Source of the DNA: a virus
Taxonomy: Duplodnaviria; Caudoviricetes
Strand: one strand, 5' to 3'
DNA length: 28,468 nucleotides
IMG/VR virus record: IMGVR_UViG_3300020362_000095
Location: 1 to 28,468 of that record
The notes beneath the pieces were generated by a model. It searched no databases. It was not told the DNA's origin and saw nothing but the letters and a program-made list of their open reading frames with translations. Shown in pieces: positions 6,322 to 28,468 of this stretch. Each line of letters opens with the position of its first letter. Positions within the stretch are counted from its first letter, which is position 1. Made by a program: the position numbers and the translations under genes.

Positions 6322-6348
6322 AATTGTCTCCTTAAAATTAAAATTACG

Positions 6349-10871: not shown

Positions 10872-10880
10872 TAGATACTC

Positions 10881-11087: not shown

Positions 11088-12608
11088 TTAATAATACTCT
11101 ACAGGCCTTCTATATTTTGGTTCATCATCCCAGTCATCCATAGTTGTTCTTATCCAGCCACCTTGTCTAAACCTTAACAGTGCCTGTGTGGTTGAGTCAA
11201 CTAGGTCATCATGATCTCCTGATGGAAATGATGCACATTCTTCTATAACTTCATCTGCCCAACGTGTAGGTGGACACCACACAACGCCACTTGCAAACAG
11301 ATCCGTGACACTGTTAACTCTTGCTATCTTATCCTGTCCACGGCTCGGTGTAAACTCAGTAACTGGTATTCCCATAGCTCTTAATTCAAAAATTAAGGGT
11401 GATCCTGCCGCTTTAGCCTCAATAATCATCTGATCTGGCTCAAATTCCCAGTATTTTTCGTAAGCTGCACGTTTTAAATCAGGAAATTCTAGTTTTTCTT
11501 TGTATGCATCAAGTAAAATGAGATTTGGCCTCTCATTTCCTTCATCATCAGGGTGATGAAAGATTCCCCAAGTGGTACAGGCGCTATAATCTGCTCTTTG
11601 TGTCTTTAAAAATGCTGTATCCCAAGACTGAATGATGGAATCACAAGGCGGAAGGTCGTCTTTTTCCCATTCTTGCCACCATTCACGCTTAATTAACGCT
11701 CCTTCTTCGGATGTGGGGTCTTGTTGATACTGTGCGTTCCACTTTGAAACGGGTAATTCAGCTCTTAATGCGTCTAATTCTTCCCTTTTCCAAAATTCAG
11801 GCCATAAAGTCTTGTTTGAAGGCAGTATTGCAGGCAGTTGTATCACTTCCCACTCGTTAGAACCCTCTCTTTCGATAGATTTATTAATAATTTGACCTGT
11901 TAAATCTCTTTTGGACCATCTTGTCATCACTAAGATGATAGCACCACCGGGCTGGAGTCTCTGTCTTGGTCCAGATGTGTACCATTCATAAACTTTGTCA
12001 TAAACTTCCGGGTTATAATCACCCATTGTGGCCTCCTGCTCGGAGTGGGGGTCATCGATAATTAAAATATCAGCACCCTTACCCGTTACCGCACCACCTA
12101 CACCTATCGCAAAGTAGTCACCACGTTTATTTGTATTCCATCTACCTGCCGCTTTAGAATCAGCAGACAGTTCTATGCCCGGAAATACTTCTTGGAAGTC
12201 TGTGTTCTGTATTAGGTTACGAACTTTTCTACCAAACCCAACAGAAAGCTCTGCTGTGTGAGCTGTTTGAATAACTTTCTTTTCTGGATATTTACCTAAA
12301 AACCATGCGGGGAAAAGATAGCTTGCAAATTCTGACTTGGTATGACGGGGTGGCATGTTGATTATCAATCTTTTTAAATCACCCCGGGCCACCTTTTCAA
12401 ATGCCTCTGCCATAATCTCATGATGTCTTCCATGAATAAAAGAAGGCCACATTAATTTTACAAACGGAAGAAAATTTTCTCTTGCTGTTTCTTTTTCTTT
12501 TACAGATTCATATTCTTCGATTAGGGCAAGTATCTCTTTTTGCTGTTCCGGCGGAAGACCACTTATCTTTTCAAGATTCCCTTTTAATAGATGACTAAGA
12601 TCATTCAT
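11088..12608 (-). CDS. terL: Terminase large subunit
   Basis: Walker A MPPRHTKS, Walker B ILIIDDP, MTRW, nuclease QSWDTA and HDDLVDS; start placed at ATG 12608 overlapping the upstream stop. Confidence 0.95.
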   Translation of the reverse strand: MNDLSHLLKGNLEKISGLPPEQQKEILALIEEYESVKEKETARENFLPFVKLMWPSFIHGRHHEIMAEAFEKVARGDLKRLIINMPPRHTKSEFASYLFPAWFLGKYPEKKVIQTAHTAELSVGFGRKVRNLIQNTDFQEVFPGIELSADSKAAGRWNTNKRGDYFAIGVGGAVTGKGADILIIDDPHSEQEATMGDYNPEVYDKVYEWYTSGPRQRLQPGGAIILVMTRWSKRDLTGQIINKSIEREGSNEWEVIQLPAILPSNKTLWPEFWKREELDALRAELPVSKWNAQYQQDPTSEEGALIKREWWQEWEKDDLPPCDSIIQSWDTAFLKTQRADYSACTTWGIFHHPDDEGNERPNLILLDAYKEKLEFPDLKRAAYEKYWEFEPDQMIIEAKAAGSPLIFELRAMGIPVTEFTPSRGQDKIARVNSVTDLFASGVVWCPPTRWADEVIEECASFPSGDHDDLVDSTTQALLRFRQGGWIRTTMDDWDDEPKYRRPVEYY

Positions 12609-12828
12609 AAATATCTCTATTGATAGGAGGCCGGTTCTCAATAATGTTTCTTGCCAACTCTATCATCCATAAACTCTCCTCGTCTTCAACTGAAGAAGAC
12701 ACATATAGCATTCTATCACCGTTCTCATCCGTAGACCAGCCAATTATGATAGCTTCATCTAATTCACGTTCTTCTAGATTTTCAGGAGGGTTTCTGTAAT
12801 CGTCTAAAGATACTACATTGTCTGACAA
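12601..12828 (-). CDS. Acidic hypothetical protein upstream of terL
   Basis: TTG start with AAAGGA RBS; NVVSLDDYR motif; coupled to terL. Confidence 0.65.
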   Translation of the reverse strand: MSDNVVSLDDYRNPPENLEERELDEAIIIGWSTDENGDRMLYVSSSVEDEESLWMIELARNIIENRPPINRDIYE

Positions 12829-12842
12829 ATAATGTTCCTTTG

Positions 12843-12925
12843 CAATATATATAAATATAATATTTATATACTTCTTTAGTATCTATATAAACTTCTTTAG
12901 AATATTTATATATATTATAATTTAT
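12843..12925. repeat. Extremely AT-rich tract with a direct repeat ACTTCTTTAG x2
   Basis: TA-rich; ACTTCTTTAG at 12870-12879 and 12891-12900. Confidence 0.5.
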
Positions 12926-13035
12926 TATACTGGCTTTTTTATTTTTGACAATATAAAAAAAGTAAATTTGTTAAAATTTTGTATTTGAGTGTGCAGAATA
13001 ACGTGCGGCTGTGTGTAGCCACGGCTGTGTCACAT

Positions 13036-13057
13036 GGGTGGGTGTGGGTAGGTGGGG
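13036..13057 (+). other. Canonical G-quadruplex motif
   Basis: GGG-T-GGG-TGT-GGG-TAGGT-GGGG inside an AT-rich intergenic region. Confidence 0.6.
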
Positions 13058-13166
13058 TCAAGCCTAGTACAAAAAAATTTTAGACCGGACACAATCAAAA
13101 AAAATTATAATCGAAAATAGAAATAATAAATGTATCGTGACTAGCTGTAAAACTTCACGTAACTTT

Positions 13167-13712
13167 TTATTTATTAATTATTGTGTTTAGCTTTGTTAAT
13201 AATTCACTTTCAATTTCTGTCGATGTTCTATCTCTTTTATCTTGTATGTTTATATTAGTTTCAAATATTCCTAAATTCTTACCTAACATCTCCAATGCTT
13301 TTAATCTAACGTGATCAGTTATATTTGTATCGTCTGCCATCTGTTCAATCTTCTTTAATATTGTTTCAATTTTACTTTCAGACAGTTTGACTTCATTCAT
13401 GCGATGTAGACGCTGTTTTTGCTCTAATAAATGATTTATAAATATCCCAATGTTATCCTTAGATCTTAATCTACTAGCTAACATTCTTAGAGTGTTTGGC
13501 TTAATATCTTTACTTACATTATAGTTGTTACGATATGCATCTATTAAACTCATGCCTTTTTGACCATTACGCCCTACAACGTCATGACAAAAACCACGCA
13601 TTTTTTCCGTCAAATCTGATCCCATAACTTTATTATTTTTAGTCTTGTTTTTTACTCTACTATCGTTATTTGAAACGAGAGTTAATTTTGTTTTGTTTTT
13701 TTTATCTGACAT
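13167..13712 (-). CDS. terS: Terminase small subunit
   Basis: LTEKMRGFC..V, AYRNNY, ASRL and RLKALEMLGKNLGIF motifs typical of TerS; GAGG RBS; upstream of terL. Confidence 0.8.
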   Translation of the reverse strand: MSDKKNKTKLTLVSNNDSRVKNKTKNNKVMGSDLTEKMRGFCHDVVGRNGQKGMSLIDAYRNNYNVSKDIKPNTLRMLASRLRSKDNIGIFINHLLEQKQRLHRMNEVKLSESKIETILKKIEQMADDTNITDHVRLKALEMLGKNLGIFETNINIQDKRDRTSTEIESELLTKLNTIINK

Positions 13713-13877
13713 TTTTATACCTCTTAAAACTTTACGTAAACTTTTGGTCTGATGTTCTAACGACCTGCGACATTTAACTTATAGTAACATTTAATAATCT
13801 ATTCGTGTAGGTCATGAAGATAATTAAATTAATTTCAGAAAAAATCAAACCTCATTCGTAATAATTTATAACAACTA

Positions 13878-14165
13878 ATGGAGATCAAATTGCATAACAT
13901 AAAATTAAACGACAAAGTAAAGACCAATCAAATTACATCAAGACCATTAAAAGAAAATGAAATTGTCAGATATATGAAATTACCGGATGGTCAAAAAATA
14001 GGTCTTAATAAAAATGGACATTCTAATGTTAATATTCGTGAATGGGATATTGATGCAAATTGGATTGTTAAAAAAATAACTGAAAAAAGAATTGGATTAG
14101 TTCACAAAAATAATCCTCATGGCAAACCTAATTTATATCTTGCCCCTCATTTTATTAAAAAGTGA
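13878..14165 (+). CDS. Hypothetical early protein
   Basis: 95-aa ORF divergent from terS; weak RBS. Confidence 0.5.
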   Translation: MEIKLHNIKLNDKVKTNQITSRPLKENEIVRYMKLPDGQKIGLNKNGHSNVNIREWDIDANWIVKKITEKRIGLVHKNNPHGKPNLYLAPHFIKK

Positions 14166-14307
14166 TGGGCAAATATTGCATAAATAATGGAATGGCATTT
14201 AATGGCGTTTTAAGCGTCATACAGCCACGAAACGATATTCATGTATGTTATTACATATTTCTTTATTTCAGCGTTTTTGTTAGTGACATTGACTTTGGTA
14301 AGGTTAG

Positions 14308-14347
14308 GTAAAATAAAGTAAAATAATGTTAAATAAAGTAAATTATA
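14308..14347 (+). repeat. Four tandem 10-bp units (GTAAAATAAA-like), phased A-tracts upstream of a promoter
   Basis: GTAAAATAAA / GTAAAATAAT / GTTAAATAAA / GTAAATTATA. Confidence 0.7.
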
Positions 14348-14350
14348 TAC

Positions 14351-14379
14351 TTGTTATTTAGAATGAAAATTATTATATA
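14351..14379 (+). promoter_or_regulatory. Sigma70-type early promoter
   Basis: TTGTTA-17 nt-TATATA; predicted start ~14386 coincides with the 5' end of the long stem. Confidence 0.6.
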
Positions 14380-14386
14380 TAGAGAG

Positions 14387-14564
14387 ACAGCCTCTGTACG
14401 GCAAAACTGAACTGATTAGTGAAACATGGTATCAGTAGGAGTTGGGATGCTCCTCGAATTTTGGCAAGGATACAAAAGACACTCACAGCCCCCACAATGA
14501 AGATCGATGAGATTGCTCTATGGGCTAGGTAGGAACTACTAATGTTTTGCCCTATAGAGGCTGT
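14387..14564 (+). ncRNA. Putative ~180-nt multibranched structured RNA
   Basis: 21-bp closing stem 14387-14407/14544-14564 enclosing five hairpins; no credible ORF inside. Confidence 0.65.
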
Positions 14565-14597
14565 TACAATTCAATCAAAATAAAATGGAGAACTATT

Positions 14598-14786
14598 ATG
14601 GAAAAAAGAACTTGGCAAATATCTTGGTTCATTGGTCATGGCAAAACTAAATCAGTTTTGGAAACAGTAGATCCATCTGACTATGTTGATAAATACATGG
14701 AGAGGGAGACACTAAGGGATGAGGCTTATACAAAGTATAAATTACATCCGGAAAAAATGGTCATGATCAAAGAATATAAGCAATAG
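14598..14786 (+). CDS. Small early hypothetical protein (62 aa)
   Basis: GGAG RBS at 14587 and ATG 14598 (start corrected from 14547). Confidence 0.7.
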   Translation: MEKRTWQISWFIGHGKTKSVLETVDPSDYVDKYMERETLRDEAYTKYKLHPEKMVMIKEYKQ

Positions 14787-14794
14787 GAGAGACT

Positions 14795-14938
14795 ATGAAA
14801 AAATATACTTTCAAAGTAACGATCGAGGGAATGAATGGATACCTCACATATACAGTTAAGGCGAACTCAAAAGATGAGGCTGTCCAAAAAGTATACGATG
14901 ATGCTGAGAAATTGCCCACAATCGTTTATGATATCTAA
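14795..14938 (+). CDS. 47-aa early microprotein (below ORF-track cutoff)
   Basis: AGGAG RBS; MKKYTFKVTIEGMNGYLTYTVKANSKDEAVQKVYDDAEKLPTIVYDI*. Confidence 0.75.
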   Translation: MKKYTFKVTIEGMNGYLTYTVKANSKDEAVQKVYDDAEKLPTIVYDI

Positions 14939-15020
14939 TGCACTAATTAGAGCAGTAGTTATTACTGCTCTTGCTAGTTCATTGGGAACTACTGCAACAT
15001 TAAAAACCAAGGAGGTACTA

Positions 15021-15653
15021 ATGCAGAAAAACAAAACTTTGATATCAGATGATATCGTTAAACAAATCGCTGAACAAGAGCAACAGCATAATGTTTTAAA
15101 GGGATCTAATAAGCAAAACTCTTCTGAGATGAGTGCGATTAGATTAGATCAATATGCTACAGCGATGATCCCAATTAATCAGATCGCAAGAACTGATACC
15201 GGCAATATTTCAGAGGATGCAACCAATGAATTATTGACCACATTCCAAGTTCGATGCGACATGACAAAAGGTCAAGCTGATCTTTTTAAACGTAATTGTG
15301 TCTTGTTTACTAACAAGCATGACTTACCAAAAAGTAATTTGACCAAGACTTACATCATGGATCTATTTAAAAAGTTGGATATCAAATCTCAAGCAAGTTT
15401 GATTAATCACAACAAGGGCGATGATGTTAAGTCTCCATTGGATACAATCATTGATAAGTTGGTAGGTTTAACAACCAAGACCGGAAAGCAAAGGGATGGT
15501 CTGATCATGACAAAAAAAGAGTTAGAAGACTTTGAGATCAGATTAAAAAATAGATTTGAAATTGCTGATAAAGGTCGCAATGCTGTTAAAGATGCAGAGA
15601 CAGAGCAAAAAGTTATTGATGATGTAACTGATGCTTTACTTGATGCATCGTAA
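15021..15653 (+). CDS. Early hypothetical protein (210 aa, helical)
   Basis: AAGGAGGT RBS then ATG 15021; the upstream extension in the ORF track overlaps another gene and a hairpin. Confidence 0.8.
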   Translation: MQKNKTLISDDIVKQIAEQEQQHNVLKGSNKQNSSEMSAIRLDQYATAMIPINQIARTDTGNISEDATNELLTTFQVRCDMTKGQADLFKRNCVLFTNKHDLPKSNLTKTYIMDLFKKLDIKSQASLINHNKGDDVKSPLDTIIDKLVGLTTKTGKQRDGLIMTKKELEDFEIRLKNRFEIADKGRNAVKDAETEQKVIDDVTDALLDAS

Positions 15654-15750
15654 TCGAATGTACAACTTTGCACAGATCTTAATGGTCTGTGCATGATTGT
15701 CCATCCGGACAGCCATGAAAATGGTTTAATCAAAAATAAGGAGTATTGAT

Positions 15751-16827
15751 ATGCGAATATCAGAAGTAAAAAATGTAATGCAAAGTGTAATAATCCAAAA
15801 CTACGAGAATATAAAAAAGGGAGCAAGTAAAGACAGATTGATCGCTTTGTATATTCAAGGTGGTGTTGGTCAAGGCAAGACCTCAGCAGTTAGATCTATG
15901 ACTACAGATCAGCTTATCCTCGATGCTGTCCAAAGAATATTTGGTGTTAAAGTTGATAAGTTAGGTTTTAATAACTTAGGTTTAGCAATGTTTGATCCGG
16001 CAGAATTAGCCGGTTGGTGTGTGCCTAATGCAGATCAACAAAGCATGACTAGGCTTAGACCGGAGTTCTTGCCAAAAGATGGCTTTGGAATTTTATTTGT
16101 TGACGAGGTGGCTCAAGCTACTTTGATGCACCATAATATTTTTGGTCAGCTTGTAGATGAAAGAAGATTAGGTAATCATTACTTAGGCGATGGTTGGATA
16201 ATCATATCGGCAGGCAATAGGCTCAAGGATAAAGCCGGAAGTAACAAGCTTCCATCACAGCTTAGAGATAGATTTACATATTTAGATCTAGAAATAGATC
16301 TTGACGATCTATTAAAATACTATGCTGAAAATAATGTAGATCCAAGGATTAGCAGTTGGCTTAAATTTGACGATCAGTATTTATATGAGTTTGACGTAAA
16401 TGCTGACAGCAACTGTACACCTAGATCAGTTGAAAGAGCATCAACCTTAATGAATTTAGGCTTGGACAGCTTATCTCTTAGAGGTGTATTGAGTGGTCAA
16501 ATTGGAGAAACAGCATCCGGATCTCTTATCGCTCACATGAAATTGTATGATAAGCTACCGGACTTTGACAGCTTAGTTAAAGATCCAAGTAATACAGCAA
16601 TACCGGAAGACAGAGGAGTGCTGTATGCTCTTTGTGGATCATTGGCAAGTAAGATGACTATGGAGAATTGTTCTCCAATTCTCACTTATATGCAGAGAAT
16701 ACCGGAGCAAGAGTATATGGCTTTCATGCTTAAAGATGCAGTAATGAGAAATAAAACCTTAGTGACTAGTCCGGCAATGAAAGCTGTCTTGGGATCTCAA
16801 GGTAAGTTAAAAGACTTGTTACTTTAA
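15751..16827 (+). CDS. MoxR-type AAA+ ATPase
   Basis: Walker A GGVGQGKT, Walker B ILFVDE, sensor-1 SAGN, Arg finger LRDRF, sensor-2 TPRS; AAGGAG RBS. Confidence 0.9.
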   Translation: MRISEVKNVMQSVIIQNYENIKKGASKDRLIALYIQGGVGQGKTSAVRSMTTDQLILDAVQRIFGVKVDKLGFNNLGLAMFDPAELAGWCVPNADQQSMTRLRPEFLPKDGFGILFVDEVAQATLMHHNIFGQLVDERRLGNHYLGDGWIIISAGNRLKDKAGSNKLPSQLRDRFTYLDLEIDLDDLLKYYAENNVDPRISSWLKFDDQYLYEFDVNADSNCTPRSVERASTLMNLGLDSLSLRGVLSGQIGETASGSLIAHMKLYDKLPDFDSLVKDPSNTAIPEDRGVLYALCGSLASKMTMENCSPILTYMQRIPEQEYMAFMLKDAVMRNKTLVTSPAMKAVLGSQGKLKDLLL

Positions 16828-16898
16828 TCAACTTGGTATGTGGTATCCTGTAATGGGATACCACGACAAAACTTTACGTAATTTTTTAGGAGTTATTA

Positions 16899-18116
16899 AT
16901 GCAAGATTTAAAATTAGAAGATAAGTTCTCAAAGATAAGAATACAATTACTTTGGGATAGAGATGATAAAGGTCATGCCTTTTGGGGCATCATGTTAGCT
17001 AAAATGAAAATTATTGAGAATAATAAATTTGATACTTGTGCAACTGATGGCAGAGACATTTTTTATAATCGTCAATATTGTGAAAGCCTATCATTCGAGC
17101 ATTTAAAAGGTGTTATTGTTCACGAGGTTAAGCATAGGGCATTGATGCATCATGTAAGGCAACAGCATAGAGACACGACAGCATGGAATGTAGCTTGTGA
17201 TTTATCTGAAAATCCTATTATCATTGATGCCGGTTTACAGTTGCCGGATGGTGTATTGCTTGATCCAAAGTTTAAGGGATGGAGTGCAGAGAAAATTTAT
17301 AATGTGATTTATCCTCAAATCCAACAGCACATGAAGAAAATGCAAATGTCTGCAAGTGGTGCAAGTGACGATGGACAAAATGGTCAAGGCGAGCAACCAA
17401 GTTGGTTACAGCCTCAATCATGGGGCAATATCGTTGATAATGTCTGCGACAAATTGTCTCCATCTGAGTTAAAAGAAGAAGAGGCTAGTGTTAGGGAAGA
17501 TATTTTCCAAGCAGTACGTCAAGCTAAGGATCGAGGCACAGTTCCGGCAGAGATCAAAAAAATGATTGATAGAATGAAGAGGGCAGAAATAGATTGGGAA
17601 GATGTAATTCAACGTCATGTCCAAGGCGATGTTCCTCATAATTTTACCTATCGTAAGATCCACAGAAAATTTTATTATAATAATAATATCATTGCTCCAA
17701 CTATTGATTATGTTGGCTGTGGTCATGTAGTTGTTGGTGTCGATAGTTCCGGATCTGTCACAGATAAAGAACTACAATTATTTTTAGGTGGTCTTAATGC
17801 TTTGTCATTAGAACTTAAACCTAAATCTGTAACGATCATAACTTGCGACAGCAAAATTCAAAATGTCTATAAGTTTGAGCAAGGCGAAGAGATCACTAAA
17901 ATTTCTGCTGATGGCAGAGGTGGAACGTGTGTCATGCCGGTGTTCAATTACATTGAAGAACATGACTTAGATGTAGACAGCTTTATCTATTTTACTGATA
18001 TGGGAGTGCATGACTTTCCGGAAGAAGAAATGCCATATCCGGTTCTTTGGGTCAGCACAGATCTTGACAGCGATAAAGCACCAATTGGTCAAACTACATA
18101 TCTAAAGGTTGCTTAG
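16899..18116 (+). CDS. HExxH metallopeptidase fused to a VWA domain (DUF2201-type)
   Basis: ATDG, HEVKH, WNVACD; MIDAS DSSGS, GRGGT, FTD; adjacent to the AAA+ ATPase. Confidence 0.88.
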   Translation: MQDLKLEDKFSKIRIQLLWDRDDKGHAFWGIMLAKMKIIENNKFDTCATDGRDIFYNRQYCESLSFEHLKGVIVHEVKHRALMHHVRQQHRDTTAWNVACDLSENPIIIDAGLQLPDGVLLDPKFKGWSAEKIYNVIYPQIQQHMKKMQMSASGASDDGQNGQGEQPSWLQPQSWGNIVDNVCDKLSPSELKEEEASVREDIFQAVRQAKDRGTVPAEIKKMIDRMKRAEIDWEDVIQRHVQGDVPHNFTYRKIHRKFYYNNNIIAPTIDYVGCGHVVVGVDSSGSVTDKELQLFLGGLNALSLELKPKSVTIITCDSKIQNVYKFEQGEEITKISADGRGGTCVMPVFNYIEEHDLDVDSFIYFTDMGVHDFPEEEMPYPVLWVSTDLDSDKAPIGQTTYLKVA

Positions 18117-18140
18117 TGCCACTTTTGGAGAATTTCGAGG

Positions 18141-18197
18141 CTCTAGGATGGTCACACAGAGGCGAAACGATATCCCCATGTGTGATTATACCTAGAG
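18141..18197 (+). other. Long hairpin whose loop motif CGAAACGATAT is shared with 14218-14247
   Basis: CTCTAGG/CCTAGAG plus ATGGTCACACA/TGTGTGATTAT stems. Confidence 0.65.
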
Positions 18198-18207
18198 ATT
18201 TTCGTAT

Positions 18208-18260
18208 GCTGATATAGGAATGTGTGTTCCTACTGATGATCTCGAAAGAGTGAAATCAGC
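18208..18260 (+). ncRNA. Type III hammerhead ribozyme
   Basis: Stem III GCTGAT/ATCAGC, cleavage triplet AUA (after 18214), stem I TAGGAA/TTCCTA with loop TGTGTG, core CTGATGA, stem II CTC-GAAA-GAG, core GAAA; U-U at positions 10.1/11.1 is non-consensus. Confidence 0.85.
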
Positions 18261-18290
18261 TAACTAATATCATTATTTATGGAGTAACTA

Positions 18291-19307
18291 ATGCAATATG
18301 ATATAGAAAAAAATAATTGGGCAAAGATATCCCATTCCAAAGTTTTACAAGAACAATATATTTTAAGGAGTTATTTAAACTTTCTTAATCATGGATGTAA
18401 AAGTTTTGGATTTAATCAAAATCAATTAGTCCAATTAAAAAAGAGTAGTGCCACTTATTTAGCTACAAGTGGTTCAGCTAATCCATTAACTGACGATGAG
18501 AAAAATTTCATCGAGATGTTTTCAAGAGGAACTAATCATTATCATAATCATGGATTAGAAAGTATCTCAAGCTGTGCTGAGGCTGTCAGACAAATTAGAA
18601 GAAAGCAAAAACATAAAAGTTCTATTTATTCTAATAAGGTTGATGGTCAAAAAGTTTTTAGAAAAGAACGTGAATACACTCATGGATTTTTTAATGGGCA
18701 ATCAGTTCATAAAAAGTTTGAGACATTATCTCAATGCTTTGCACAGAAATGGTGGAGAGATAAGCAATCAAGAACCAATATTATTATTAAGGTTGATGCA
18801 CTCTCACAGAAAATTTCTTACGAGAAAGCTGAAAGAGGCAGAGCCGGTAATTGGAACTATAACAGCGATGAAAGAAATACATTAATTTTAACTCCATCGT
18901 GGTTTAAAAATGTATTCATGAAAGGCTTGGCAACCACAATATATAAAAGCAAAACAGCATTTATTGCTAAAGCTAATCCTATTGAGGTATCAGAAAAGAT
19001 TAAGTCTCAAAATTTAAATGCTTATGTCGTTGACGTTGTTACTTGTTACGATGGCATTATTGACGTTGAGCATGATCTTTACTGCTTGGCTTATGAAAGC
19101 AAACCATCAGAACAGCTTAGTGTTCACGATGATTTTGGTGGTAACGTGCCATTGCCTCAAGGAGAGGCTCATAAGATGGGTCTGACCAATAATGTTATCT
19201 ACACTCCGGCAGAGACAATTAATTCTGTGTCTTCTAATTTTCGTAGGGCAGAAAATGTCATGAGTGGCAGAGTTCAAAAAAATATACTTGATGCTATGGG
19301 AGTTTAA
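18291..19307 (+). CDS. Early hypothetical protein (338 aa)
   Basis: GGAG RBS; long ORF with no recognisable motif; starts 30 nt after the hammerhead. Confidence 0.8.
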   Translation: MQYDIEKNNWAKISHSKVLQEQYILRSYLNFLNHGCKSFGFNQNQLVQLKKSSATYLATSGSANPLTDDEKNFIEMFSRGTNHYHNHGLESISSCAEAVRQIRRKQKHKSSIYSNKVDGQKVFRKEREYTHGFFNGQSVHKKFETLSQCFAQKWWRDKQSRTNIIIKVDALSQKISYEKAERGRAGNWNYNSDERNTLILTPSWFKNVFMKGLATTIYKSKTAFIAKANPIEVSEKIKSQNLNAYVVDVVTCYDGIIDVEHDLYCLAYESKPSEQLSVHDDFGGNVPLPQGEAHKMGLTNNVIYTPAETINSVSSNFRRAENVMSGRVQKNILDAMGV

Positions 19308-19308
19308 A

Positions 19309-19536: not shown

Positions 19537-19537
19537 A

Positions 19538-19811: not shown

Positions 19812-19854
19812 ATATTACAGCCATTAATCATAATTAACAACAAAGGGAGACAAT

Positions 19855-20040: not shown

Positions 20041-20041
20041 A

Positions 20042-20402: not shown

Positions 20403-20443
20403 TAAATTTTTGTCTTGTCGTGATGCCCCCTAAAATATCTAGA

Positions 20444-20465
20444 CAAAACTTTACGTAAAGTTTTG
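20444..20465. promoter_or_regulatory. Perfect 22-bp palindrome CAAAACTTTACGTAAAGTTTTG (best copy of a dispersed operator-like motif)
   Basis: Related copies at 353-368, 13149-13168, 13726-13745, 16868-16887, 19604-19613, 26641-26660, 28433-28452. Confidence 0.8.
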
Positions 20466-20501
20466 AAAAAATTAAGGGCAATCGAGGAGTGATTGCCCTT
20501 A
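20466..20501 (-). terminator. Terminator between convergent operons
   Basis: TAAGGGCAATC/GATTGCCCTTA perfect 11-bp stem with an A-run on the left. Confidence 0.75.
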
Positions 20502-20558
20502 TATAGCATGAAAATGAGTTGACACTCATCTAATCTATAGATCCCACCATTTAATTAG

Positions 20559-21053
20559 TCAACTATTTCCCCAAAAATTATAAAACTTTTCTACTTTTTC
20601 AGCTAAAAAGCTGAAATTTTTTTTTATCCAATTCATTTCACGTAACGTGATGTGGTCATCCTCAACTATTTTTTTTAATATTTTGTATGCTGTTTCGTTG
20701 CCGGTCGACTTTATTGCAGAAAAACAATCCAATACTTTTCTTTTTAATATTGCCTTTTTCAAATTCAAAGGTTCGTGTGTAGCTATTTTTATATTATAAT
20801 TTGTTGCTCTCACTCCAACAAATCCAGATCTACAATAATCAGAATAAAACTTATCAATAATTTTGTAATCATCTAGCGATATACTATCATCCATAAGTAA
20901 CGTGTCTAGGCACGTTTGATCAACAATTCTGACCCTTACTCCATCGTCTTTGAACTCTGCTTTAGCAGTATGTTTTCCTGCGTATATAGGTATCTTAGAG
21001 TAATTTTTTTTACTTTTTTTAGAAGCTGATGTCCTTGTACTCTTTTGGCTCAT
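20559..21053 (-). CDS. Hypothetical protein, possible late-gene regulator (DUF6456/antiterminator-like)
   Basis: LDTLLMDDSISLDDY...FYSDY resembles the helical N-domain of alphaproteobacterial phage regulators; follows the helicase; function is speculative. Confidence 0.4.
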   Translation of the reverse strand: MSQKSTRTSASKKSKKNYSKIPIYAGKHTAKAEFKDDGVRVRIVDQTCLDTLLMDDSISLDDYKIIDKFYSDYCRSGFVGVRATNYNIKIATHEPLNLKKAILKRKVLDCFSAIKSTGNETAYKILKKIVEDDHITLREMNWIKKNFSFLAEKVEKFYNFWGNS

Positions 21054-22845
21054 AATAATTGTTAATAGTTTTCTTTGGTTTTAACATATCTTCTGTTTTT
21101 GACAAAGCCTCGTATCTAGATGTTATCTTGTCGTACTCTAATTCTCTTTCTCCAATTTGACCTACCCAAGAAAATCTACATTTCCAAACCATGATTTGAG
21201 TTACATTACTTTTAGTTGGTCTTGGTCTATGAACTGTCAATCCAACATCTGATTTACTAAAAAAAGATGCAGATCCGGCAATGTCATAACCTTTTGGAGG
21301 TGGTGTTGTGCCATCTTCTCGTCTTGTCATTTTATTAGGATGAGCAACAAACCAAATATGTATGCCATGTGCTTGTGCAAAAACTCTTAACTTTGTAAGC
21401 ATATCTGATATCCAATCAGTTTCAGATGTCGTGATATCTTTTGCTATGTAATTGTAAGGATCTATTACACAGCCACGTATACCAAATCTAAATACAGCAG
21501 TTTTTAATCTTTCTAAAATGCTGTCCAACGTGGATAGCGATCCGTCTGCTTGATACAAAAAACAAAAGTTTTCTGAAACAAACTTTTTTCCAATCGCTAA
21601 ATCATGTGTAGAAACTTTTGGTGTCACACCATCAAAAAAAGGTTTGCCAACATATTTGCTAATTAACTTTGCTATATGTATTCGTGGTTCGTTTTCAAAA
21701 GAACAAACTCCAAATTTCCAACCTTTGTCTTTTGCAATGTTGATCATTATTTGATCTACAAACTCAGATTTGCCGGATGATGGATGTCCGGTAACAACTG
21801 TAAGCTGACCCTCAACAACTGTATAAATCTCATCTATGCTCTTGTATCCGGTGCTTAGACCACTACCAATTCCATGCTCGTATATCTCGTCAACTTGTTC
21901 ATAAAAATGATTAGCATCATAAAGACCTGAAACCGGATAAGGGATAGGATTTTTTATTATTTCTTCTAACTTTTCTTTTCCATGTTTTACCAAAACTTCA
22001 TTGGCATCCTTGCAATCTTGTGGATAAACAAGTTTAAAACATTTATCTTTACCAACTCTTCTAGCGATCTCTTCTTCCATAGCTTGACCGGCTTGATCGC
22101 TGTCCATAGCTATTATAATCTTTTTACATTTATCTAGTTTTTCTTTTGAGTTCCAAATAAATTTAAATTTACCATCTTCTTTAGGATCTATTTTGCCATC
22201 CACTACTTTCATGACAGCACCATGTGGTATGGATATGCTGTTATTACAGCCTATTTCCATGAAAGACAAACAATCCATTTCTCCCTCACAAATTATTATT
22301 TCATCCTCTTTTTCTACATTATCAATATTATAAAAGTTTTCTGCCTTGCCATAACTAGCAAACCCTTTATCCGGAAAAGATCGTATCTTGGCAAAATGAT
22401 AAGAACCCTTTGTGTCTTGATATGGAAAAACTAAACAAGAAGCCTCTTTTTTGATTGCACCAATGTAATGATTTATAAATTTTATACCGGCTTTTGTTGC
22501 TGTTTCTTTGGATATTCCTCTGCTTGATAAGTATTGTAAACTACCATTGTTTTCTTCAATCTCGTTTAAATTATTAGTAAATGATTGATTAATGTTTACA
22601 ACTTTTTCACTTTCCACAGATTTTCTCCTCATTTGATTTAAATTTTCATCATTAAATTTTATGCCACCATCTTCTCCACAATGCCAACAATAATACATAA
22701 TTACATCATTGCTAATCTTTAGCGACAATGTTTTCTGATCTTTCTTTTTTCTTGTATGTGAGCAAAATGGGCAGATTGCCTTGTGTTGACCACCACCTAA
22801 TTTTAGGGCAACACTTCTAATTGAGTGCCTCATCTCCATATTCAT
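21019..22845 (-). CDS. T7 gp4/Twinkle-like DNA primase-helicase
   Basis: Zn finger CPFC...CWHC, TOPRIM EGEMD, DSDQAG, KDANE; SF4 Walker A GHPSSGKS, IDPYN, VAHP; AAGGAG RBS. Confidence 0.93.
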   Translation of the reverse strand: MNMEMRHSIRSVALKLGGGQHKAICPFCSHTRKKKDQKTLSLKISNDVIMYYCWHCGEDGGIKFNDENLNQMRRKSVESEKVVNINQSFTNNLNEIEENNGSLQYLSSRGISKETATKAGIKFINHYIGAIKKEASCLVFPYQDTKGSYHFAKIRSFPDKGFASYGKAENFYNIDNVEKEDEIIICEGEMDCLSFMEIGCNNSISIPHGAVMKVVDGKIDPKEDGKFKFIWNSKEKLDKCKKIIIAMDSDQAGQAMEEEIARRVGKDKCFKLVYPQDCKDANEVLVKHGKEKLEEIIKNPIPYPVSGLYDANHFYEQVDEIYEHGIGSGLSTGYKSIDEIYTVVEGQLTVVTGHPSSGKSEFVDQIMINIAKDKGWKFGVCSFENEPRIHIAKLISKYVGKPFFDGVTPKVSTHDLAIGKKFVSENFCFLYQADGSLSTLDSILERLKTAVFRFGIRGCVIDPYNYIAKDITTSETDWISDMLTKLRVFAQAHGIHIWFVAHPNKMTRREDGTTPPPKGYDIAGSASFFSKSDVGLTVHRPRPTKSNVTQIMVWKCRFSWVGQIGERELEYDKITSRYEALSKTEDMLKPKKTINNYYEPKEYKDISF

Positions 22846-23064
22846 CTCCTTGCTATACCTTTCATCATTATTTTAAAATAAAGAAATCGTCAACAAAAAA
22901 ATTTTTTCAAATAAAATTTTCAAATTGCACAAGTATGTAATATAATATAACTACGCATAACGAGGCAGTAATGTTTTTTGTTTCCTTTCTTACATTACTG
23001 CCACCTCCTTTAATATATATAAATATTCTATACAAGTTTATATAACAGTTAATATATATATATA

Positions 23065-23391
23065 TTATATACTGACAATTTTGTTTTGAATAACTCTTCT
23101 CAATCTCTCCCCTAAATATCTAGCAACAACCGGTTTGCTCATTAAAATTTCTTGTATTAGCTTTGACATTTCTTCAGCATTTAATGACCCCAAATCACAT
23201 ACCATGCTAAAATCTTCAGATTTAAGCCACTTACCTACTGAAACTTTCTCTCTAGAGCTTCCCAAATAGCTGTCAGAAATCGCTTGGCACATCACATGTT
23301 TCCAAAGGCGAGATTCTGATGTGAGTTCGTGGTGTGGTTCTATCCAAACCCCAATGAACGTGCTTTTGTTTGACTTGTCTGTCATTAACAT
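23065..23391 (-). CDS. Conserved hypothetical protein (LWxxVxxQAxxD motif)
   Basis: 108 aa; overlaps the RusA-like gene; start uncertain. Confidence 0.6.
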   Translation of the reverse strand: MLMTDKSNKSTFIGVWIEPHHELTSESRLWKHVMCQAISDSYLGSSREKVSVGKWLKSEDFSMVCDLGSLNAEEMSKLIQEILMSKPVVARYLGERLRRVIQNKIVSI

Positions 23392-23665
23392 AGATCTTTC
23401 CTTGCATACAATCTAGAACAACACTCTCATCTAGATCCGGTCTTCTAGATGCATAATATATAATTAACTCTACTTTTACGTCAGTTTCAATAAGATTTTC
23501 TAATTGTGGACATTGTTGTGCAAATACTTTTTCATAATTTCTAGCTTTATCAGATTTAATAACTCCAAATCTTTTTCCAAAATTTACTATTTTTCTTGAA
23601 TTTGCCTTGGATGCAGGCTCTCCATGTATAACAAAATTTATACTTTTATTTATTTCTATTGACAT
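23273..23665 (-). CDS. RusA-like Holliday junction resolvase
   Basis: GEPASKANSR; RRPDLDE...LDCMQGKIYVNDRQV acidic motif. Confidence 0.8.
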   Translation of the reverse strand: MSIEINKSINFVIHGEPASKANSRKIVNFGKRFGVIKSDKARNYEKVFAQQCPQLENLIETDVKVELIIYYASRRPDLDESVVLDCMQGKIYVNDRQVKQKHVHWGLDRTTPRTHIRISPLETCDVPSDF

Positions 23666-23686
23666 TATTTTACCTATACTTATATT
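23659..23686 (+). promoter_or_regulatory. Sigma70 promoter of the recombination operon
   Basis: TTGACA-16 nt-TATATT; overlaps the start codon of the divergent RusA-like gene. Confidence 0.65.
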
Positions 23687-23712
23687 TAAAAATGCATGAA
23701 TAGGAGAATGAC

Positions 23713-24624
23713 ATGAAAATTACCAATAAGTTTGGTATGCCACAACCATTTGTCGATTTTGCCATAAACGACAAATACAGTAAAGGCAAAGCTGATATAT
23801 CTGTAACATCACTAATTGATAGTCCTAGAGTTAGGATTATGAAAGATGTTTATCACGATCAAATAGAAGTCGATGCTGTAGATATGGTTTGGGCATTATT
23901 TGGAACTGCTGTACATTCAGTATTAGAACAATCTAATTCATCTAAAAATATTATAAACGAAGAGAGAATATTTGCAGAATTAAACGGATGGATTTTGTCC
24001 GGTGCTTTAGATAGGCAAGAAATAACTGACAATGTTGCATCAATAATAGATTACAAGGTTACATCAGTTTGGTCAGTAATTTATGGAAAAATAGAATGGG
24101 AAAGACAGCTTAATTGTTATGCTTGGCTCTTTAGACAAAAGAAAGAAAACATTGGTAAGTCAGTTGGCTCTCTAAAAATATGTGCAATTTTAAGAGATTG
24201 GAACAGAAGAGATGCTGAGAAAAAAGAAAATTATCCACAAGCACCAATCGTATTCGTAGACATACCACTTTGGGATGCTGAGATTGCTCATCAATATGTA
24301 TCTGAAAGATTACATTTACATCAAGATGCTCAGATGAGTTATGATTTATTAAAAGATCTTCCTCTTTGTACTGATGAGGAAAGATGGAAAAAAGATGATA
24401 CATGGGCAGTAAAAAAGAAAGGTCAGAAAAGAGCCATTAGAGTTTTGGAAAGTGAGCATGAGGCTGAAAAGTACATTAATTGGCATGATGAAACTGACAC
24501 AGCATATATCAAGAAAACAGATTTAGAAATAGAGTTTCGATGTGGAGAACACACTCGATGTGGCAACTATTGTTCAGTTGCTGATTTTTGCAATCAATAC
24601 AAAGGAGAAAAAGATGGCAGATAA
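23713..24624 (+). CDS. Cas4/RecB-like PD-(D/E)XK exonuclease
   Basis: GTAVH, SGALD, IIDYK, QLNCY, C-terminal RCGNYCSVADFC; AGGAG RBS. Confidence 0.85.
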   Translation: MKITNKFGMPQPFVDFAINDKYSKGKADISVTSLIDSPRVRIMKDVYHDQIEVDAVDMVWALFGTAVHSVLEQSNSSKNIINEERIFAELNGWILSGALDRQEITDNVASIIDYKVTSVWSVIYGKIEWERQLNCYAWLFRQKKENIGKSVGSLKICAILRDWNRRDAEKKENYPQAPIVFVDIPLWDAEIAHQYVSERLHLHQDAQMSYDLLKDLPLCTDEERWKKDDTWAVKKKGQKRAIRVLESEHEAEKYINWHDETDTAYIKKTDLEIEFRCGEHTRCGNYCSVADFCNQYKGEKDGR

Positions 24625-24892
24625 AAAAACAAAAAAGTTAATGGAAACACTTGAAAAAGAAAAAAGAAAAAGGGCAAGAAACAAGAAAGGTCACTTTGTT
24701 GCAGACGATCCTAACACACCACAGAACGAGGCTTATGTTAAGTCTAGTGGCAAAGTAAAGGTTGGACTAAATGCCCATATAAACGAGGCAACTAATAAAG
24801 GAAAGCCTATTCAAAGGTTCTTTTTAGTTAGATGGTATGAGTATTTAGTAAAAAAATATTTAAAATTTGTAGACAAAACATTTGGCATGTAA
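24614..24892 (+). CDS. Small basic protein with RARxxKGxFVADDPNTP motif
   Basis: AAGGAG RBS then ATG 24614. Confidence 0.7.
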   Translation: MADKKTKKLMETLEKEKRKRARNKKGHFVADDPNTPQNEAYVKSSGKVKVGLNAHINEATNKGKPIQRFFLVRWYEYLVKKYLKFVDKTFGM

Positions 24893-24893
24893 C

Positions 24894-25151
24894 ATGAGCG
24901 ATAAAGTAGATTTATGTTACTTGCCAACGAATGGTTTGTGCAAGTTAAATGAGATTTTGGATGACAGTTTCTTTCCATCTAATCAAGAGAATATTATCAA
25001 ACAAGAGTTGATAACATACGAAAAGGTTGATGGTGCGATAAAGAAATCAACATTTGAAAGAAATTACATTGGAACAAGACATCATGATGGTCACACCACA
25101 GAAATCTTTCCAACTAAACTAGCAGAAAAAGAGGTAAAAAATGAAAAGTAA
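24894..25151 (+). CDS. Hypothetical protein
   Basis: Tightly packed ORF in the operon. Confidence 0.6.
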   Translation: MSDKVDLCYLPTNGLCKLNEILDDSFFPSNQENIIKQELITYEKVDGAIKKSTFERNYIGTRHHDGHTTEIFPTKLAEKEVKNEK

Positions 25152-25893
25152 TGCAACGGATAAGGTCGCAAGTGAAATACCGGAAAAGGTCGCTAAGACA
25201 TTAAAAGATATAGGAATGACAACGAAACAAGCCGGATGGGATTGTCATGGAACTTATGTTCTTTTGCATAAGGCATTAGAGAAAGTTGCTGTTTATAATA
25301 AAATAACTTTTAAAGAACCTACAATATTAGAATGTAACTCAGAGAAAAAAGTGGTCAGTTTGTTGGTCACCGGAACTATGGGAGACAAATCAGAATGGTC
25401 TATAGGAGAGGCATCCCCATCAAATAATAGAAACAGCTATCCCTATGCGATGGCTGAAAAGAGAGCCAAAGACAGAGTGATACTAAAACTTGTGGGTCTT
25501 CATGGAGATGTTTATGCAGAAGATGAGGCTGATGCTTTTAAAGAGGCAAGACCTAAAGAAATAAAAGGTGGCACTATGGATAATGGATCTAAAGAAGTTA
25601 CTGAAGAAAAACGAAAGCCACCTAGACAGCCACTTATAGATGTAAAAGATATCGAAAGCGATAAGGTAGAAACTGTGCCTGCCGATCAAGGCATAAATAT
25701 AATTAAAGATGTTTTTAAAACTTTTATGCCAAACGATGACATAGATAAACTCAGACGATTTAAAGATGTTAATAAAGAGGCATTGACACATTTAAAAGAA
25801 TTTGATGAGACAGCCTATCAAGAAGTTAAAGATTTATTTATGGCGAAAGCTGAAGAACTCAAAACTAAAGCAAAAGGAGAAGTAAATGAGTGA
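25141..25893 (+). CDS. Putative single-strand annealing protein (recombinase)
   Basis: GEASP..N..YPYAMAEKRAKDRVILKL...VYAEDEA motif; exonuclease-SSAP-SSB gene order. Confidence 0.6.
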   Translation: MKSNATDKVASEIPEKVAKTLKDIGMTTKQAGWDCHGTYVLLHKALEKVAVYNKITFKEPTILECNSEKKVVSLLVTGTMGDKSEWSIGEASPSNNRNSYPYAMAEKRAKDRVILKLVGLHGDVYAEDEADAFKEARPKEIKGGTMDNGSKEVTEEKRKPPRQPLIDVKDIESDKVETVPADQGINIIKDVFKTFMPNDDIDKLRRFKDVNKEALTHLKEFDETAYQEVKDLFMAKAEELKTKAKGEVNE

Positions 25894-26185
25894 ACAAAAT
25901 AGTTATCCACCAAGTGGAACTTTATTTGCAACCAAGGAAAAAAGAACTGAAAAGTCTCCGGATTATACCGGTCAGTTTGAATTGTCACATGAGGTTATAA
26001 TAGATCTCTATGGTCAAATGAAAGAGGGTGTTGAAAAGCCTATATTTAGTATGGTTGGTTGGAAGAAGTATAGTAACAGAACCGGAGTTTCATTTCTTTC
26101 TGTAAGAGGAAATGTTTATGAGCCAAAGGAATTAAAAGACATACCTAGACCTAAGCCAAAGAGCAAAGAAGATTTTGAAATTTAA
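25886..26185 (+). CDS. ssDNA-binding protein (DUF736-like)
   Basis: GTLF..KEK..EKSPDYTG, acidic/aromatic tail; follows the annealing protein. Confidence 0.6.
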   Translation: MSEQNSYPPSGTLFATKEKRTEKSPDYTGQFELSHEVIIDLYGQMKEGVEKPIFSMVGWKKYSNRTGVSFLSVRGNVYEPKELKDIPRPKPKSKEDFEI

Positions 26186-26200
26186 TTAAGGGAGAAAATA

Positions 26201-26434
26201 ATGGAAGACAACAAACCACAATCAAATGTTCCTAACGTCAGTTTCGAGGCTGTGAAAACTTCAATGATGCAAGACAAGAATGGAACAAATATTAAACTAA
26301 CAATACATCCAAACGATGTTCCGGCTAAATTACACAAAGATTGGGTTGGATCTCGTTACATGGTTGTTATGGTCAAGATAAATGACGATGGCACTCCGGA
26401 TCAAGGAGAGGATGATGTCATCAAACAAGCATAA
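26201..26434 (+). CDS. Conserved hypothetical protein
   Basis: AGGGAG RBS; IHPNDVP...GSRYMVVMV. Confidence 0.7.
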   Translation: MEDNKPQSNVPNVSFEAVKTSMMQDKNGTNIKLTIHPNDVPAKLHKDWVGSRYMVVMVKINDDGTPDQGEDDVIKQA

Positions 26435-26654
26435 TGAAGATGAGGTTATGTCTGAAGAGTATTTAACTCTTCAAGGCTTGGCTAAAATGCTTGCGATAAC
26501 AAAGCCAACTCTTTACAAGATCATAAGAAATGAGGAACTTGGTTTTCCCAAGCCTTTTCCATTGATGAACACACAACAAAGGAAAAAGAACCTTTGGAGC
26601 AAGAAAGAAGTTCGAGAATGGCTTGAGCATCAGAGAGATCAAAAAGTTACGTAA
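26415..26654 (+). CDS. AlpA/excisionase-like winged HTH DNA-binding protein
   Basis: YLTLQGLAKMLAITKPTLYKII...FPKP...WSKKEVREWL. Confidence 0.8.
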   Translation: MSSNKHNEDEVMSEEYLTLQGLAKMLAITKPTLYKIIRNEELGFPKPFPLMNTQQRKKNLWSKKEVREWLEHQRDQKVT

Positions 26655-26658
26655 AGTT

Positions 26659-27105
26659 ATGGCTAGGATAAAATACGAGTCTCAAGATAACCTCAGACAA
26701 GAAAAAAATGTTTTAGGACACATGTCACGATTGTGGGATGTGTCTTATTCTAAATTGCCACTAGATTACAAATTAGATTATGCGATGTATAGAAATGATA
26801 CTTTGGTAGGTTTTGCTGAAGTAAAATGCAGAAAGCCATCAATAAAAGATTTTCCAACTTATATAATATCTTTAGCCAAGATTATGAAAGCAAGAAGACT
26901 AGCATCTGTAACCGGAACTAAATCAGTTTTGATTGTTAGTTGGTCTGATGCAACTGGCTGGATAGATGTGTTCTCAGATTTTATTGTAAAACAAGGTGGC
27001 AGAAAAGATAGAGAAGATTGGCAAGACGAAGAGCCGGTGTGCCACTTTGATATTAATGATTTTAAAATAATTTCACACAATGATTTATCCGGCAGCCAAA
27101 AATAA
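26659..27105 (+). CDS. PD-(D/E)XK family endonuclease
   Basis: LDYAMYR...GFAEVKCR; GGRKDR. Confidence 0.7.
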   Translation: MARIKYESQDNLRQEKNVLGHMSRLWDVSYSKLPLDYKLDYAMYRNDTLVGFAEVKCRKPSIKDFPTYIISLAKIMKARRLASVTGTKSVLIVSWSDATGWIDVFSDFIVKQGGRKDREDWQDEEPVCHFDINDFKIISHNDLSGSQK

Positions 27106-27118
27106 CAAAGAGGTAGAT

Positions 27119-27334
27119 ATGTCACATTTTAAGTTAGCAAAAAAAGAAATTGAGATGTTTGTTTTATCAATGAAAATACATAGAAAAAAAATAGATGAAG
27201 AACATCCTCATTCTGATACCTATGAGTATTTGCATCCGGTATCTAAACAAAGAAGATATCTTGATAGCTTGATAGGTAAAATGGAGAATGAATTAAAAGT
27301 AAGGTCGATGCGACCACATAAAGTAACAGTATAA
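27119..27334 (+). CDS. Hypothetical protein
   Basis: GAGG RBS then ATG 27119. Confidence 0.65.
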   Translation: MSHFKLAKKEIEMFVLSMKIHRKKIDEEHPHSDTYEYLHPVSKQRRYLDSLIGKMENELKVRSMRPHKVTV

Positions 27335-27344
27335 GGAGTGATGT

Positions 27345-27545
27345 ATGTTTAAAGCGATGGCACTAATATGTAGTGCTTGGATAGCAAATGGAGAGGCGAA
27401 GCAAGCATGCTTTACTCACATGTTTGAATGGGAGTTTGAGACAAAAAAAGAATGTCAAATAAAGCTGTTGTATTATCGAGCCAAGGAAGTACCACCATAC
27501 CACAACATAGTTTTAGGGGAATGTATAAAGGTTAATAAACTATGA
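27345..27545 (+). CDS. Small Cys-containing, possibly exported protein
   Basis: AAGGAG RBS; hydrophobic N-terminus, four Cys. Confidence 0.65.
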   Translation: MFKAMALICSAWIANGEAKQACFTHMFEWEFETKKECQIKLLYYRAKEVPPYHNIVLGECIKVNKL

Positions 27546-27937
27546 GGAGACCTAATGAGAGTTGGTCAAGTTTTACTTCTAGACTTTGTAAAATTGTAAA
27601 CGAAAGAGAAAAAGAGAGAAAAGACTTTTTATATAAATTCAATATAGCATTAGAAAAAAGCAGAAAAGCAAAAGTAAAGCTAAATCCTAATGCTAAAACA
27701 AAAGCAAAGAAAAGAAAACTTGTCCAAGAATACAAAGTGATGATGGGTTGTTCTAAATGTGGATACAAAGAAAATCCGGATATTTTGCATTTTCACCACA
27801 TTGACCCAACAACTAAAATAGCTAATATATCAAGAATGGTTGGTAAAAATCACAGCATGGAAAGAATTAAAAATGAAATAGCAAAGTGTAAACTGCTTTG
27901 CATAACGTGTCATCATAAGGAGCATGGAATCAAATGA
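27542..27937 (+). CDS. HNH endonuclease
   Basis: CSKCG...LHFHHID...KCKLLCITCHHKEH. Confidence 0.85.
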   Translation: MRRPNESWSSFTSRLCKIVNEREKERKDFLYKFNIALEKSRKAKVKLNPNAKTKAKKRKLVQEYKVMMGCSKCGYKENPDILHFHHIDPTTKIANISRMVGKNHSMERIKNEIAKCKLLCITCHHKEHGIK

Positions 27938-28191
27938 AACTAGCAGATGGATATGAAAAGGCATTTATTGGAACGACCATAAGTGCTTTTGGAAGAAAAC
28001 AAGTAGCATTATATGACTATGATAAATGTATAATGATACTCATGAATGATAATGATTGGAATGAAGAAGAAGCTATAGAATGGTTTAACTTCAACACAAT
28101 AGGGTCTTGGGTAGGCGAAGATACTCCCATATTTGTTAACGTACATAAACTAGACGTTATAAATGATTTCTTGGAGGATGACGATGAGTGA
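27934..28191 (+). CDS. Conserved acidic phage protein
   Basis: ADGYEKAFIG...EEAIEWFNFNTIGSWVGEDTP; ATGA overlap. Confidence 0.75.
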   Translation: MKLADGYEKAFIGTTISAFGRKQVALYDYDKCIMILMNDNDWNEEEAIEWFNFNTIGSWVGEDTPIFVNVHKLDVINDFLEDDDE

Positions 28192-28429
28192 TAACGTAAA
28201 CAGACCAAGCCACTATAGAAAAGGCAAAGTAGAATGTATTGATGCAATTAAGTCTGCCTTAGCTGAGGGCTACGAGTATTACTTACAAGGAAATATATTA
28301 AAATATGTATGGAGATATAACCACAAGAACCAAATAGAAGATCTTGAAAAAGCACAATGGTATCTCAAAGAATTAATAAAAGTAAAAAAAAGACCACCTA
28401 ACAATTACCTCCCGGGAGGTGGTTCTTAG
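28184..28429 (+). CDS. DUF3310 protein (T7 gp1.7-like nucleotide kinase family)
   Basis: VNRPSHY, ECIDAI, GNILKYVWRY, EDLEKAQWYL. Confidence 0.85.
   Translation: MSDNVNRPSHYRKGKVECIDAIKSALAEGYEYYLQGNILKYVWRYNHKNQIEDLEKAQWYLKELIKVKKRPPNNYLPGGGS
28384..28425 (-). terminator. Probable terminator for a convergent minus-strand transcript
   Basis: GACCACCT/AGGTGGTT stem with a large loop, preceded by an A-run. Confidence 0.45.
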
Positions 28430-28468
28430 ACTAAAACTTTACGTAAACTTTTGCTAACTACTATCATG

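Follow-up and report, generated by a model that had tools for sequence, protein, structure and literature searches.

The stretch of DNA analysed here (the window) covers positions 1 to 28,468 of the virus record IMGVR_UViG_3300020362_000095 (Duplodnaviria; Caudoviricetes), 28,468 nucleotides in all, and is part of a phage genome. Its left arm is a minus-strand virion (late) module (1-12980) with the terminase large subunit gene terL and portal, GroES and capsid genes, and its right arm carries the terminase small subunit gene terS with genes for an ATPase, a DUF2201 peptidase/vWA protein, a primase-helicase, the resolvase RusA, an exonuclease and small genes. Our subject is a site-purged block of ~15.4 kb (13060-28410), delimited by change-point fit, codon shuffle and gene-by-gene counts, which comprises the whole early/replication module together with terS. 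The sequence is also present in marine metagenomes (the 24 runs listed are all contigs, with no RNA run among them), and the cultured phages nearest to it by TerL are of the HTVC023P/HTVC027P type, DSL-LC04 and MinM2 (48-56% identity). Because two relatives, G001 and G002, are circularly complete (the genome of G002 being 59.5 kb), the block can be put at 26% of the genome. A host look-up in GTDB gave 40 capsid-gene loci scattered over bins of many unrelated taxa. The block is real, conserved and under selection, and our literature search, whose scope excluded most subscription journals and supplements, returned no account of such a block in this group.

The original prediction, made from the letters of the window alone, had reported from approximate manual counts that several restriction-type sites nearly vanish beyond about 12.6 kb. 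Exact counts bear this out: GANTC occurs 31 times up to 12,600 and three times beyond (23312, 26677 and 27927), GGCC 22 times with one more copy at 12,629 and none thereafter, and GCGC 17 times against none, and the final copy of GCGG/CCGC lies at 13,005. The purge is also, as had been claimed, independent of the coding strand, with 0 sites against 5.0 expected in terS (13167-13712, minus strand) and 1 against 34.9 in the minus-strand primase-helicase gene (21019-22845). The sharp boundary that had been placed near the gap between terS and terL is a real step; it is not a one-sided switch, however, since the purged block is bounded by another edge where the window ends on the right.

A systematic word scan revealed a purge stronger than first noted, its top words (CCAG, CCTG, CCGA and GAAGG) having been absent from the earlier list. 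Measured against shuffles of synonymous codons, the block holds 3 copies of CCAG versus 42.3 expected, 2 of CCGA versus 37.8, 7 of CCTG versus 38.5, 3 of GANTC versus 31.6 and none of CCGC, GAAGG or GGCC versus 17.4, 16.8 and 12.7, respectively. The left arm is overall far closer to expectation (CCGA 15 versus 26, CCTG 109 versus 102, GANTC 31 versus 40, GGCC 22 versus 18). After Bonferroni correction 25 of 744 words, which overlap and are not independent, are depleted in the block only. GATC is undepleted there (74 versus 53 expected), and CCGG is five-fold enriched (50 versus 9.9 expected in 13060-28410), apparently as the sole CCG context permitted in the block of the window; in the relatives G001-G003 CCGG is instead avoided. 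The reversed control words CTNAG, GACC, AGCC and AGTGG show no depletion, and GTCC stands at about half of expectation in both arms.

A fit of two change points, using eleven words picked on the window, returned a block of 15,405 bp with 0.39 sites/kb versus 20.06/kb outside (log-likelihood ratio 179). These window-chosen words also gave blocks in G001 (16,151 bp), G002 (15,593 bp) and G003 (15,787 bp), with ratios of 189-208, and they scored just 16-21 in G004-G006 and 6.3 in HTVC027P, a cultured SAR11 phage. Taken gene by gene, the ratio of observed to expected sites was at most 0.49 in each of the 24 block genes that encode 75 aa or more and 0.79-1.14 in all 12 late genes listed, a step that was repeated in G001 and G002; since the word sets of this test derive from the block, what is informative in it is how even the depletion is and that there is a step. 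The terS gene, which is coded on the late strand, is purged across genomes as well (2 sites versus 20.7 expected, pooled over three genomes).

When we scanned without preselected words, a zone from about -16 kb to terL was found in all six marine relatives scanned, with its own words in each. In MinM2 the same scan picked no word that passed the threshold, in HTVC027P it picked three words at scattered places, and in DSL-LC04 mainly a tail-gene island. Among 33 terL loci, selected out of 80 for the presence of upstream DNA, 10 are near-totally purged of the window's words upstream of terL, and the rest are purged partially or of different sets. The avoided words vary by lineage; GANTC, for instance, is retained in the block of three loci (L054, L064 and L065) in which other words are purged, and throughout HTVC027P. 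In DSL-LC04 (locus L230) the word CCAGA, with 140 copies in the genome, is absent for 11.6 kb from the terL start codon (14319-25963); this gap, at 0 versus 7.8 copies expected by codon shuffle, fails multiple testing and is possibly a one-word version of the block in a culturable system.

Selection against new sites is still acting in the block. Between the window and L149, a locus 96% identical to it, 1 of 182 isolated synonymous differences in the block creates a site versus 29.0 expected, and between the window and L150 the figure is 1 of 142 versus 23.6 expected; in late genes (compared with L001) 16 of 171 differences are site-creating versus 23.3 expected. The few sites that persist are unevenly spread, with 68 in 74,059 nt at the far end (0.92/kb) versus 18 in 100,508 nt near terS (0.18/kb), an about five-fold difference in a set of 20 sequences made up of G001 and 19 primase loci, the latter chosen by eye for strong purging out of 31 non-redundant ones. 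The leakage extends over the final 4-5 kb of the block, and a step at the giant gene follows it. Because these sequences are related, the gradient is a trend and not a formal test; it fits entry of the DNA from the terS side.

At the near edge lies a conserved element (12980-13060), a candidate packaging or terminus signal, which contains a G-tract (13036-13058) directly past the terS stop codon. The purge edge tracks this element in all eight genomes compared, and the element stays beside terS even where extra genes displace terL by 0.8-2.6 kb, with dense sites restarting past it. Across 19 loci, selected for purge further upstream and including several close kin, 7 sites fall in the 13,300 nt preceding the element and 18 in its first 950 nt, some of these stemming from the tract itself, and sites return within 50 nt of its start. 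Beyond the element, the sites are retained in terL (11088-12641, minus strand; 84 versus 75.4 expected) and in an open reading frame for a 75-aa acidic protein (12601-12828, minus strand; 4 versus 5.1 expected). The tract is the only canonical motif of four G3 runs in the window, it is the top G4Hunter window in eight of nine group records (one of them near-identical to the window) and the third in G001, and four G3 runs are present in 26 of 50 distinct versions of it. Packaging signals that form G-quadruplexes are described for herpesviruses in part of PMC13595911, and a phage case was not encountered in our literature search. We also noted a long-read contig (G011:C21; L236 1-500) whose first base falls inside terS, at ~450 nt from the C-rich element that follows, and which passes into bacterial DNA halfway through the primase gene. 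In this single case the start could be a packaging start or a misassembly, and on account of the bacterial junction it was not used as evidence of a terminus or of a host.

The far edge is a convergent junction with a gene of ~3,200 aa (3,202 aa) that carries LPD38 and comes after the genes for DNA-ejection proteins. Only its stop codon and last bases fall in the window (28464-28468, minus strand), as placed through L149, and since that locus shows the window to end at the stop codon of this giant gene, the window contains the whole block. The giant gene retains its sites (254 versus 265 and 279 versus 290 expected), and the first returning sites lie in a 14-bp palindrome (28407-28420) at the end of the DUF3310 gene (28163-28429, plus strand), the last gene of the block. 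A palindromic box of 20-22 bp at the far junction (28432-28453) is one of six in the block, the others lying at 13148, 13725, 16867, 20444 and ~26639, mainly at gene ends and at both convergent junctions; boxes in G001, G004 and G007 have the same arms and a different core. The box is possibly an operator or a roadblock. Large polyvalent proteins of the LPD38 type are proposed to be injected in portions of PMC5512222 and 10.64898/2026.04.10.717836. Because no DarB-like methylase-helicase domain was detected in the giant far-edge protein, it is not established as a protector.

The reading that we favor, with a probability of about 0.65, is that the block is the first-entering segment of a staged, T5-like DNA entry from a fixed end at ~13.04 kb, at the G-tract after terS. 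Ordered entry is the simplest reading because clearing a quarter of the genome pays only if the rest is spared. The word pattern and enzyme specificities suggest that the purged words are restriction-modification targets, and we take them to be those of HinfI, HaeIII, HhaI, Sau96I, HphI and others. In lambda, P22 and T7 the DNA that is packaged last is ejected first. Packaging that started at the element and proceeded toward terL would leave the block to be packaged last and ejected first, and the early genes, most of which are transcribed away from terS, would mostly run inward from the end that enters first; terL's best promoter-like match, itself weak, would come in last. The block would thus meet the host restriction enzymes before an early phage product protects the remaining 44 kb, and entry would pause, or protection would be completed, where the block and the giant virion gene meet in convergent orientation. 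Such protection may span enzymes with 4-5-bp targets and spare 6-bp cutters from inhibition.

The original prediction had likewise proposed that the right arm enters first, a claim that gains indirect support from the edge that follows the element in eight of eight genomes and from the gradient of residual sites; the link that it drew from GANTC to CcrM methylation is not supported as an explanation. In Alphaproteobacteria, GANTC is under-represented genome-wide, according to part of PMC8919816. Here its depletion is confined to the block and is neither GANTC-specific nor genome-wide; it is one word among many, and some relatives, the three loci and HTVC027P mentioned above among them, show no such effect.

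Several observations weigh against this staged entry. In the late module as in the block, CCWGG and 6-bp palindromes that vary by lineage (CTGCAG, AAGCTT, GAATTC, CAGCTG and more) are near zero, so the late DNA, unpurged of 4-5-bp words, is not fully shielded, and T5 tolerates 6-bp sites in its later DNA, unlike the phages here, which avoid several such palindromes everywhere. A few sites do occur within terS in G004-G007. The element is not a point at which contig ends accumulate (ends upstream of it spread from 44 nt to several kb), and in four runs, represented by assembled contigs only, no site emerged where many molecules start or stop; G001 and G002 are closed by overlaps of 77 and 52 bp, which circular assembly yields either way. 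Headful packaging would permute the order of entry and weaken the model, as is argued in a passage of PMC12455610. Because the block coincides exactly with a functional module, position and module are not fully separable. No match to a methyltransferase or to a known anti-restriction family was obtained in the block or among the 69 G002 proteins scanned. GGCC, CCGG or GATC are additionally avoided genome-wide in some lineages and late-only depleted words occur in one of eight genomes, and, as there are two tiers of avoidance, the late DNA is under some pressure but a different one from that which purges the block. The same two tiers imply that protection is selective, which narrows the possible mechanisms.

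The search for a protector covered 42 window proteins in PHROGs, 29 in Pfam, 20 in PADLOC (two marginal matches) and 20 in NCBIfam, and gave no informative match. The 69 G002 proteins were scanned in Pfam, leaving aside three piece-crossing open reading frames and seven others (mostly terL, portal, capsid and GroES). By position alone, the candidates are a conserved all-helical protein of 210 aa (15021-15653, plus strand), encoded by the first large gene of the block, a conserved 338-aa protein with no family assigned (18291-19307, plus strand) and the pair formed by the ATPase (15751-16827, plus strand; phrog_1297) and the DUF2201 putative metallopeptidase with a vWA-like region (16899-18116, plus strand). 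The predicted folds of the 210-aa and 338-aa proteins (pLDDT 79.7 and 72.6) had no match in the PDB, one viral model matching weakly, and an atlas look-up returned just unnamed clusters or nothing. Near the entry edge, no protein was conspicuous as a strongly acidic candidate of the Ocr kind. The ATPase/DUF2201 pair was rejected as a sufficient protector, since MinM2 carries it and has no block, and a phage nuclease cutting at the avoided words was rejected because the word sets are too numerous and lineage-dependent.

If the block does enter first, it might do so from the opposite end, with the terminus at the giant-gene junction (~28.46 kb) and a pause at the G-tract after terS. Both edges are steps, the far junction has a palindromic box and a hairpin, and either polarity allows a linear map in which the block is terminal; residual sites are nevertheless five-fold denser at the far end, the majority of early genes read away from terS, and the conserved cis element adjoins the terminase genes, which makes this polarity improbable. 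A comparably small chance attaches to the proposal that the block-only words are methyltransferase targets, with methylation from the previous host being cut by Type IV enzymes until an early inhibitor is made, and with ordinary 6-bp Type II sites, for which there is no inhibitor, being avoided everywhere. This would account for both tiers and accommodate words of the orphan type, for example GANTC (part of PMC8919816 treats its methylation in marine Alphaproteobacteria), and it would still need ordered entry. No host, methylome or inhibitor has been identified for it, however, the genome-wide avoidance of GGCC, CCGG or GATC in some lineages counts against it, and many block-only words match classical Type II cutter sites.

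Exposure of the module without staged entry, whether through exchange of the early module, its existence as a separate replicon in restriction-rich hosts or shielding of the late DNA by protein, would explain why block and module coincide. Relatives do have early genes that are less alike (about 25-80% identity) than their genes for TerL, portal and capsid (79-97%), and contig depth is lower over the block in four of four runs, although depth is unreliable and strain mixing could explain it. Against this, the late module must survive in the same hosts, selection is visible between 96%-identical strains, the word set is particular to each lineage and the G002 proteins scanned have no integrase match, so that we regard this account, too, as unlikely. 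Least credible of all, and to be given hardly any weight, is a mutational or compositional artefact (codon bias, lower GC content, a chimeric contig or mutational loss of methylated cytosines). GC content is a little lower in the block (0.34 versus 0.38) and most of the words have C or G runs, yet shuffles that preserve composition still expect 10-40 copies per word, which excludes codon composition; the reversed control words are undepleted, CCGG is enriched, and new sites are missing between close strains. A chimeric contig is likewise excluded, the edge at 12.9-13.1 kb being bridged by contigs in all four runs from three studies (two of them from the study to which the possible source sample also belongs).

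Beyond staged entry as such lies a fuller scenario, which we advance tentatively and think somewhat more apt to fail than to hold: an undescribed mode of entry in marine podophages, with a G-quadruplex-like packaging end after terS, a 15-16-kb leading segment with the replication module complete in it, arrest of entry at the giant gene for the ejection protein and an early gene of no known family that disarms dozens of 4-5-bp specificities and leaves 6-bp cutters active. If true, restriction would be countered by a new mechanism of broad spectrum, and from the avoided words one could read out the methylome of each uncultured host. Matching the lineage-specific word sets to methylomes could link uncultured phages to their hosts, a scan of this kind gives predictions, from sequence alone, of where genomes end and in what order they enter, and the group offers a short list of uncharacterised early genes.

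The remaining features of the window can be described briefly. A Sigma-70-like match (12924-12951, minus strand; 11 of 12 positions) is directed into terL and is weak, the total of such matches equalling chance. An AT-rich inverted repeat of 34 nt, 94% complementary, lies upstream of terL (12884-12917) and, 10 kb away, upstream of the primase gene (23011-23044). A region with an open reading frame of 95 aa (13811-14182) is missing from variant contigs of two studies and marks, at the block's start, a variable slot. Further along are RusA (23273-23665, minus strand), a PD-(D/E)XK exonuclease (23713-24624, plus strand), an HTH_17/AlpA-like DNA-binding protein (26382-26654, plus strand) and a PDDEXK_14 putative endonuclease (26623-27105, plus strand). 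In the complete G002 genome no DNA polymerase or integrase family was matched (69 proteins, Pfam), and hence the host replicase is probably used.

Among the cultured relatives, MinM2 (of the MinM2/Yong1 type) shares the early layout, with an ATPase (annotated there as MoxR family), vWA, primase and exonuclease genes and then a giant gene at a convergent junction, but is without a block. HTVC027P differs in having a DNA polymerase A, of which no match was found in the window's block or among the G002 proteins scanned, and it too is without a block; DSL-LC04 has a one-word version at most. N4-like phages share the exonuclease with the group described here, and part of PMC8594841 attributes their resistance against the Type II systems tested to missing sites. 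T7 has Ocr, for which there is no family match here, and neither a phage RNA polymerase nor an Ocr-like gene was matched among the window and G002 proteins scanned. In the marine podophage Murciavirus, restriction is caused only by a motif in the leading region, as stated in part of PMC12455610; that work concerns one Type I motif, whereas the purge described here takes in dozens of 4-5-bp words along 15 kb and ends sharply on both sides.

The closest parallel is T5/BF23, in which restriction acts only on sites in the first-injected repeat and later DNA is protected by an early function not yet known, according to passages of PMC10644984 and 10.1101/866236, the former describing the protection of later-entering DNA in T5-like phages as still an open question. 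As in the first-step transfer (FST) segment of T5, one contiguous segment is depleted of sites that the rest of the genome carries. The T5 segment, which accounts for 7.9% of its genome, is a long terminal repeat with pre-early genes; the block is 26%, three times that share, apparently single-copy and made up of replication genes and terS, and the phage here has podovirus-type ejection proteins. Scans of block proteins in PHROGs, Pfam and NCBIfam gave no match to the T5 pre-early families A1, A2 and dmp. As regards a T5-type direct terminal repeat of ~10 kb, contig depth, which is unreliable, is not raised over the block. Given the lack of A1/A2, RNA polymerase and Ocr matches, the larger share, the replication genes and the 6-bp sites that are not tolerated later, the block belongs to neither the T5/BF23 nor the Murciavirus type. 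Staged-entry restriction avoidance is a known principle, of which this block would be a further form with apparently selective protection, an independent and far sharper natural case than T5, in which site density steps 50-fold at edges placed within tens to hundreds of bases.

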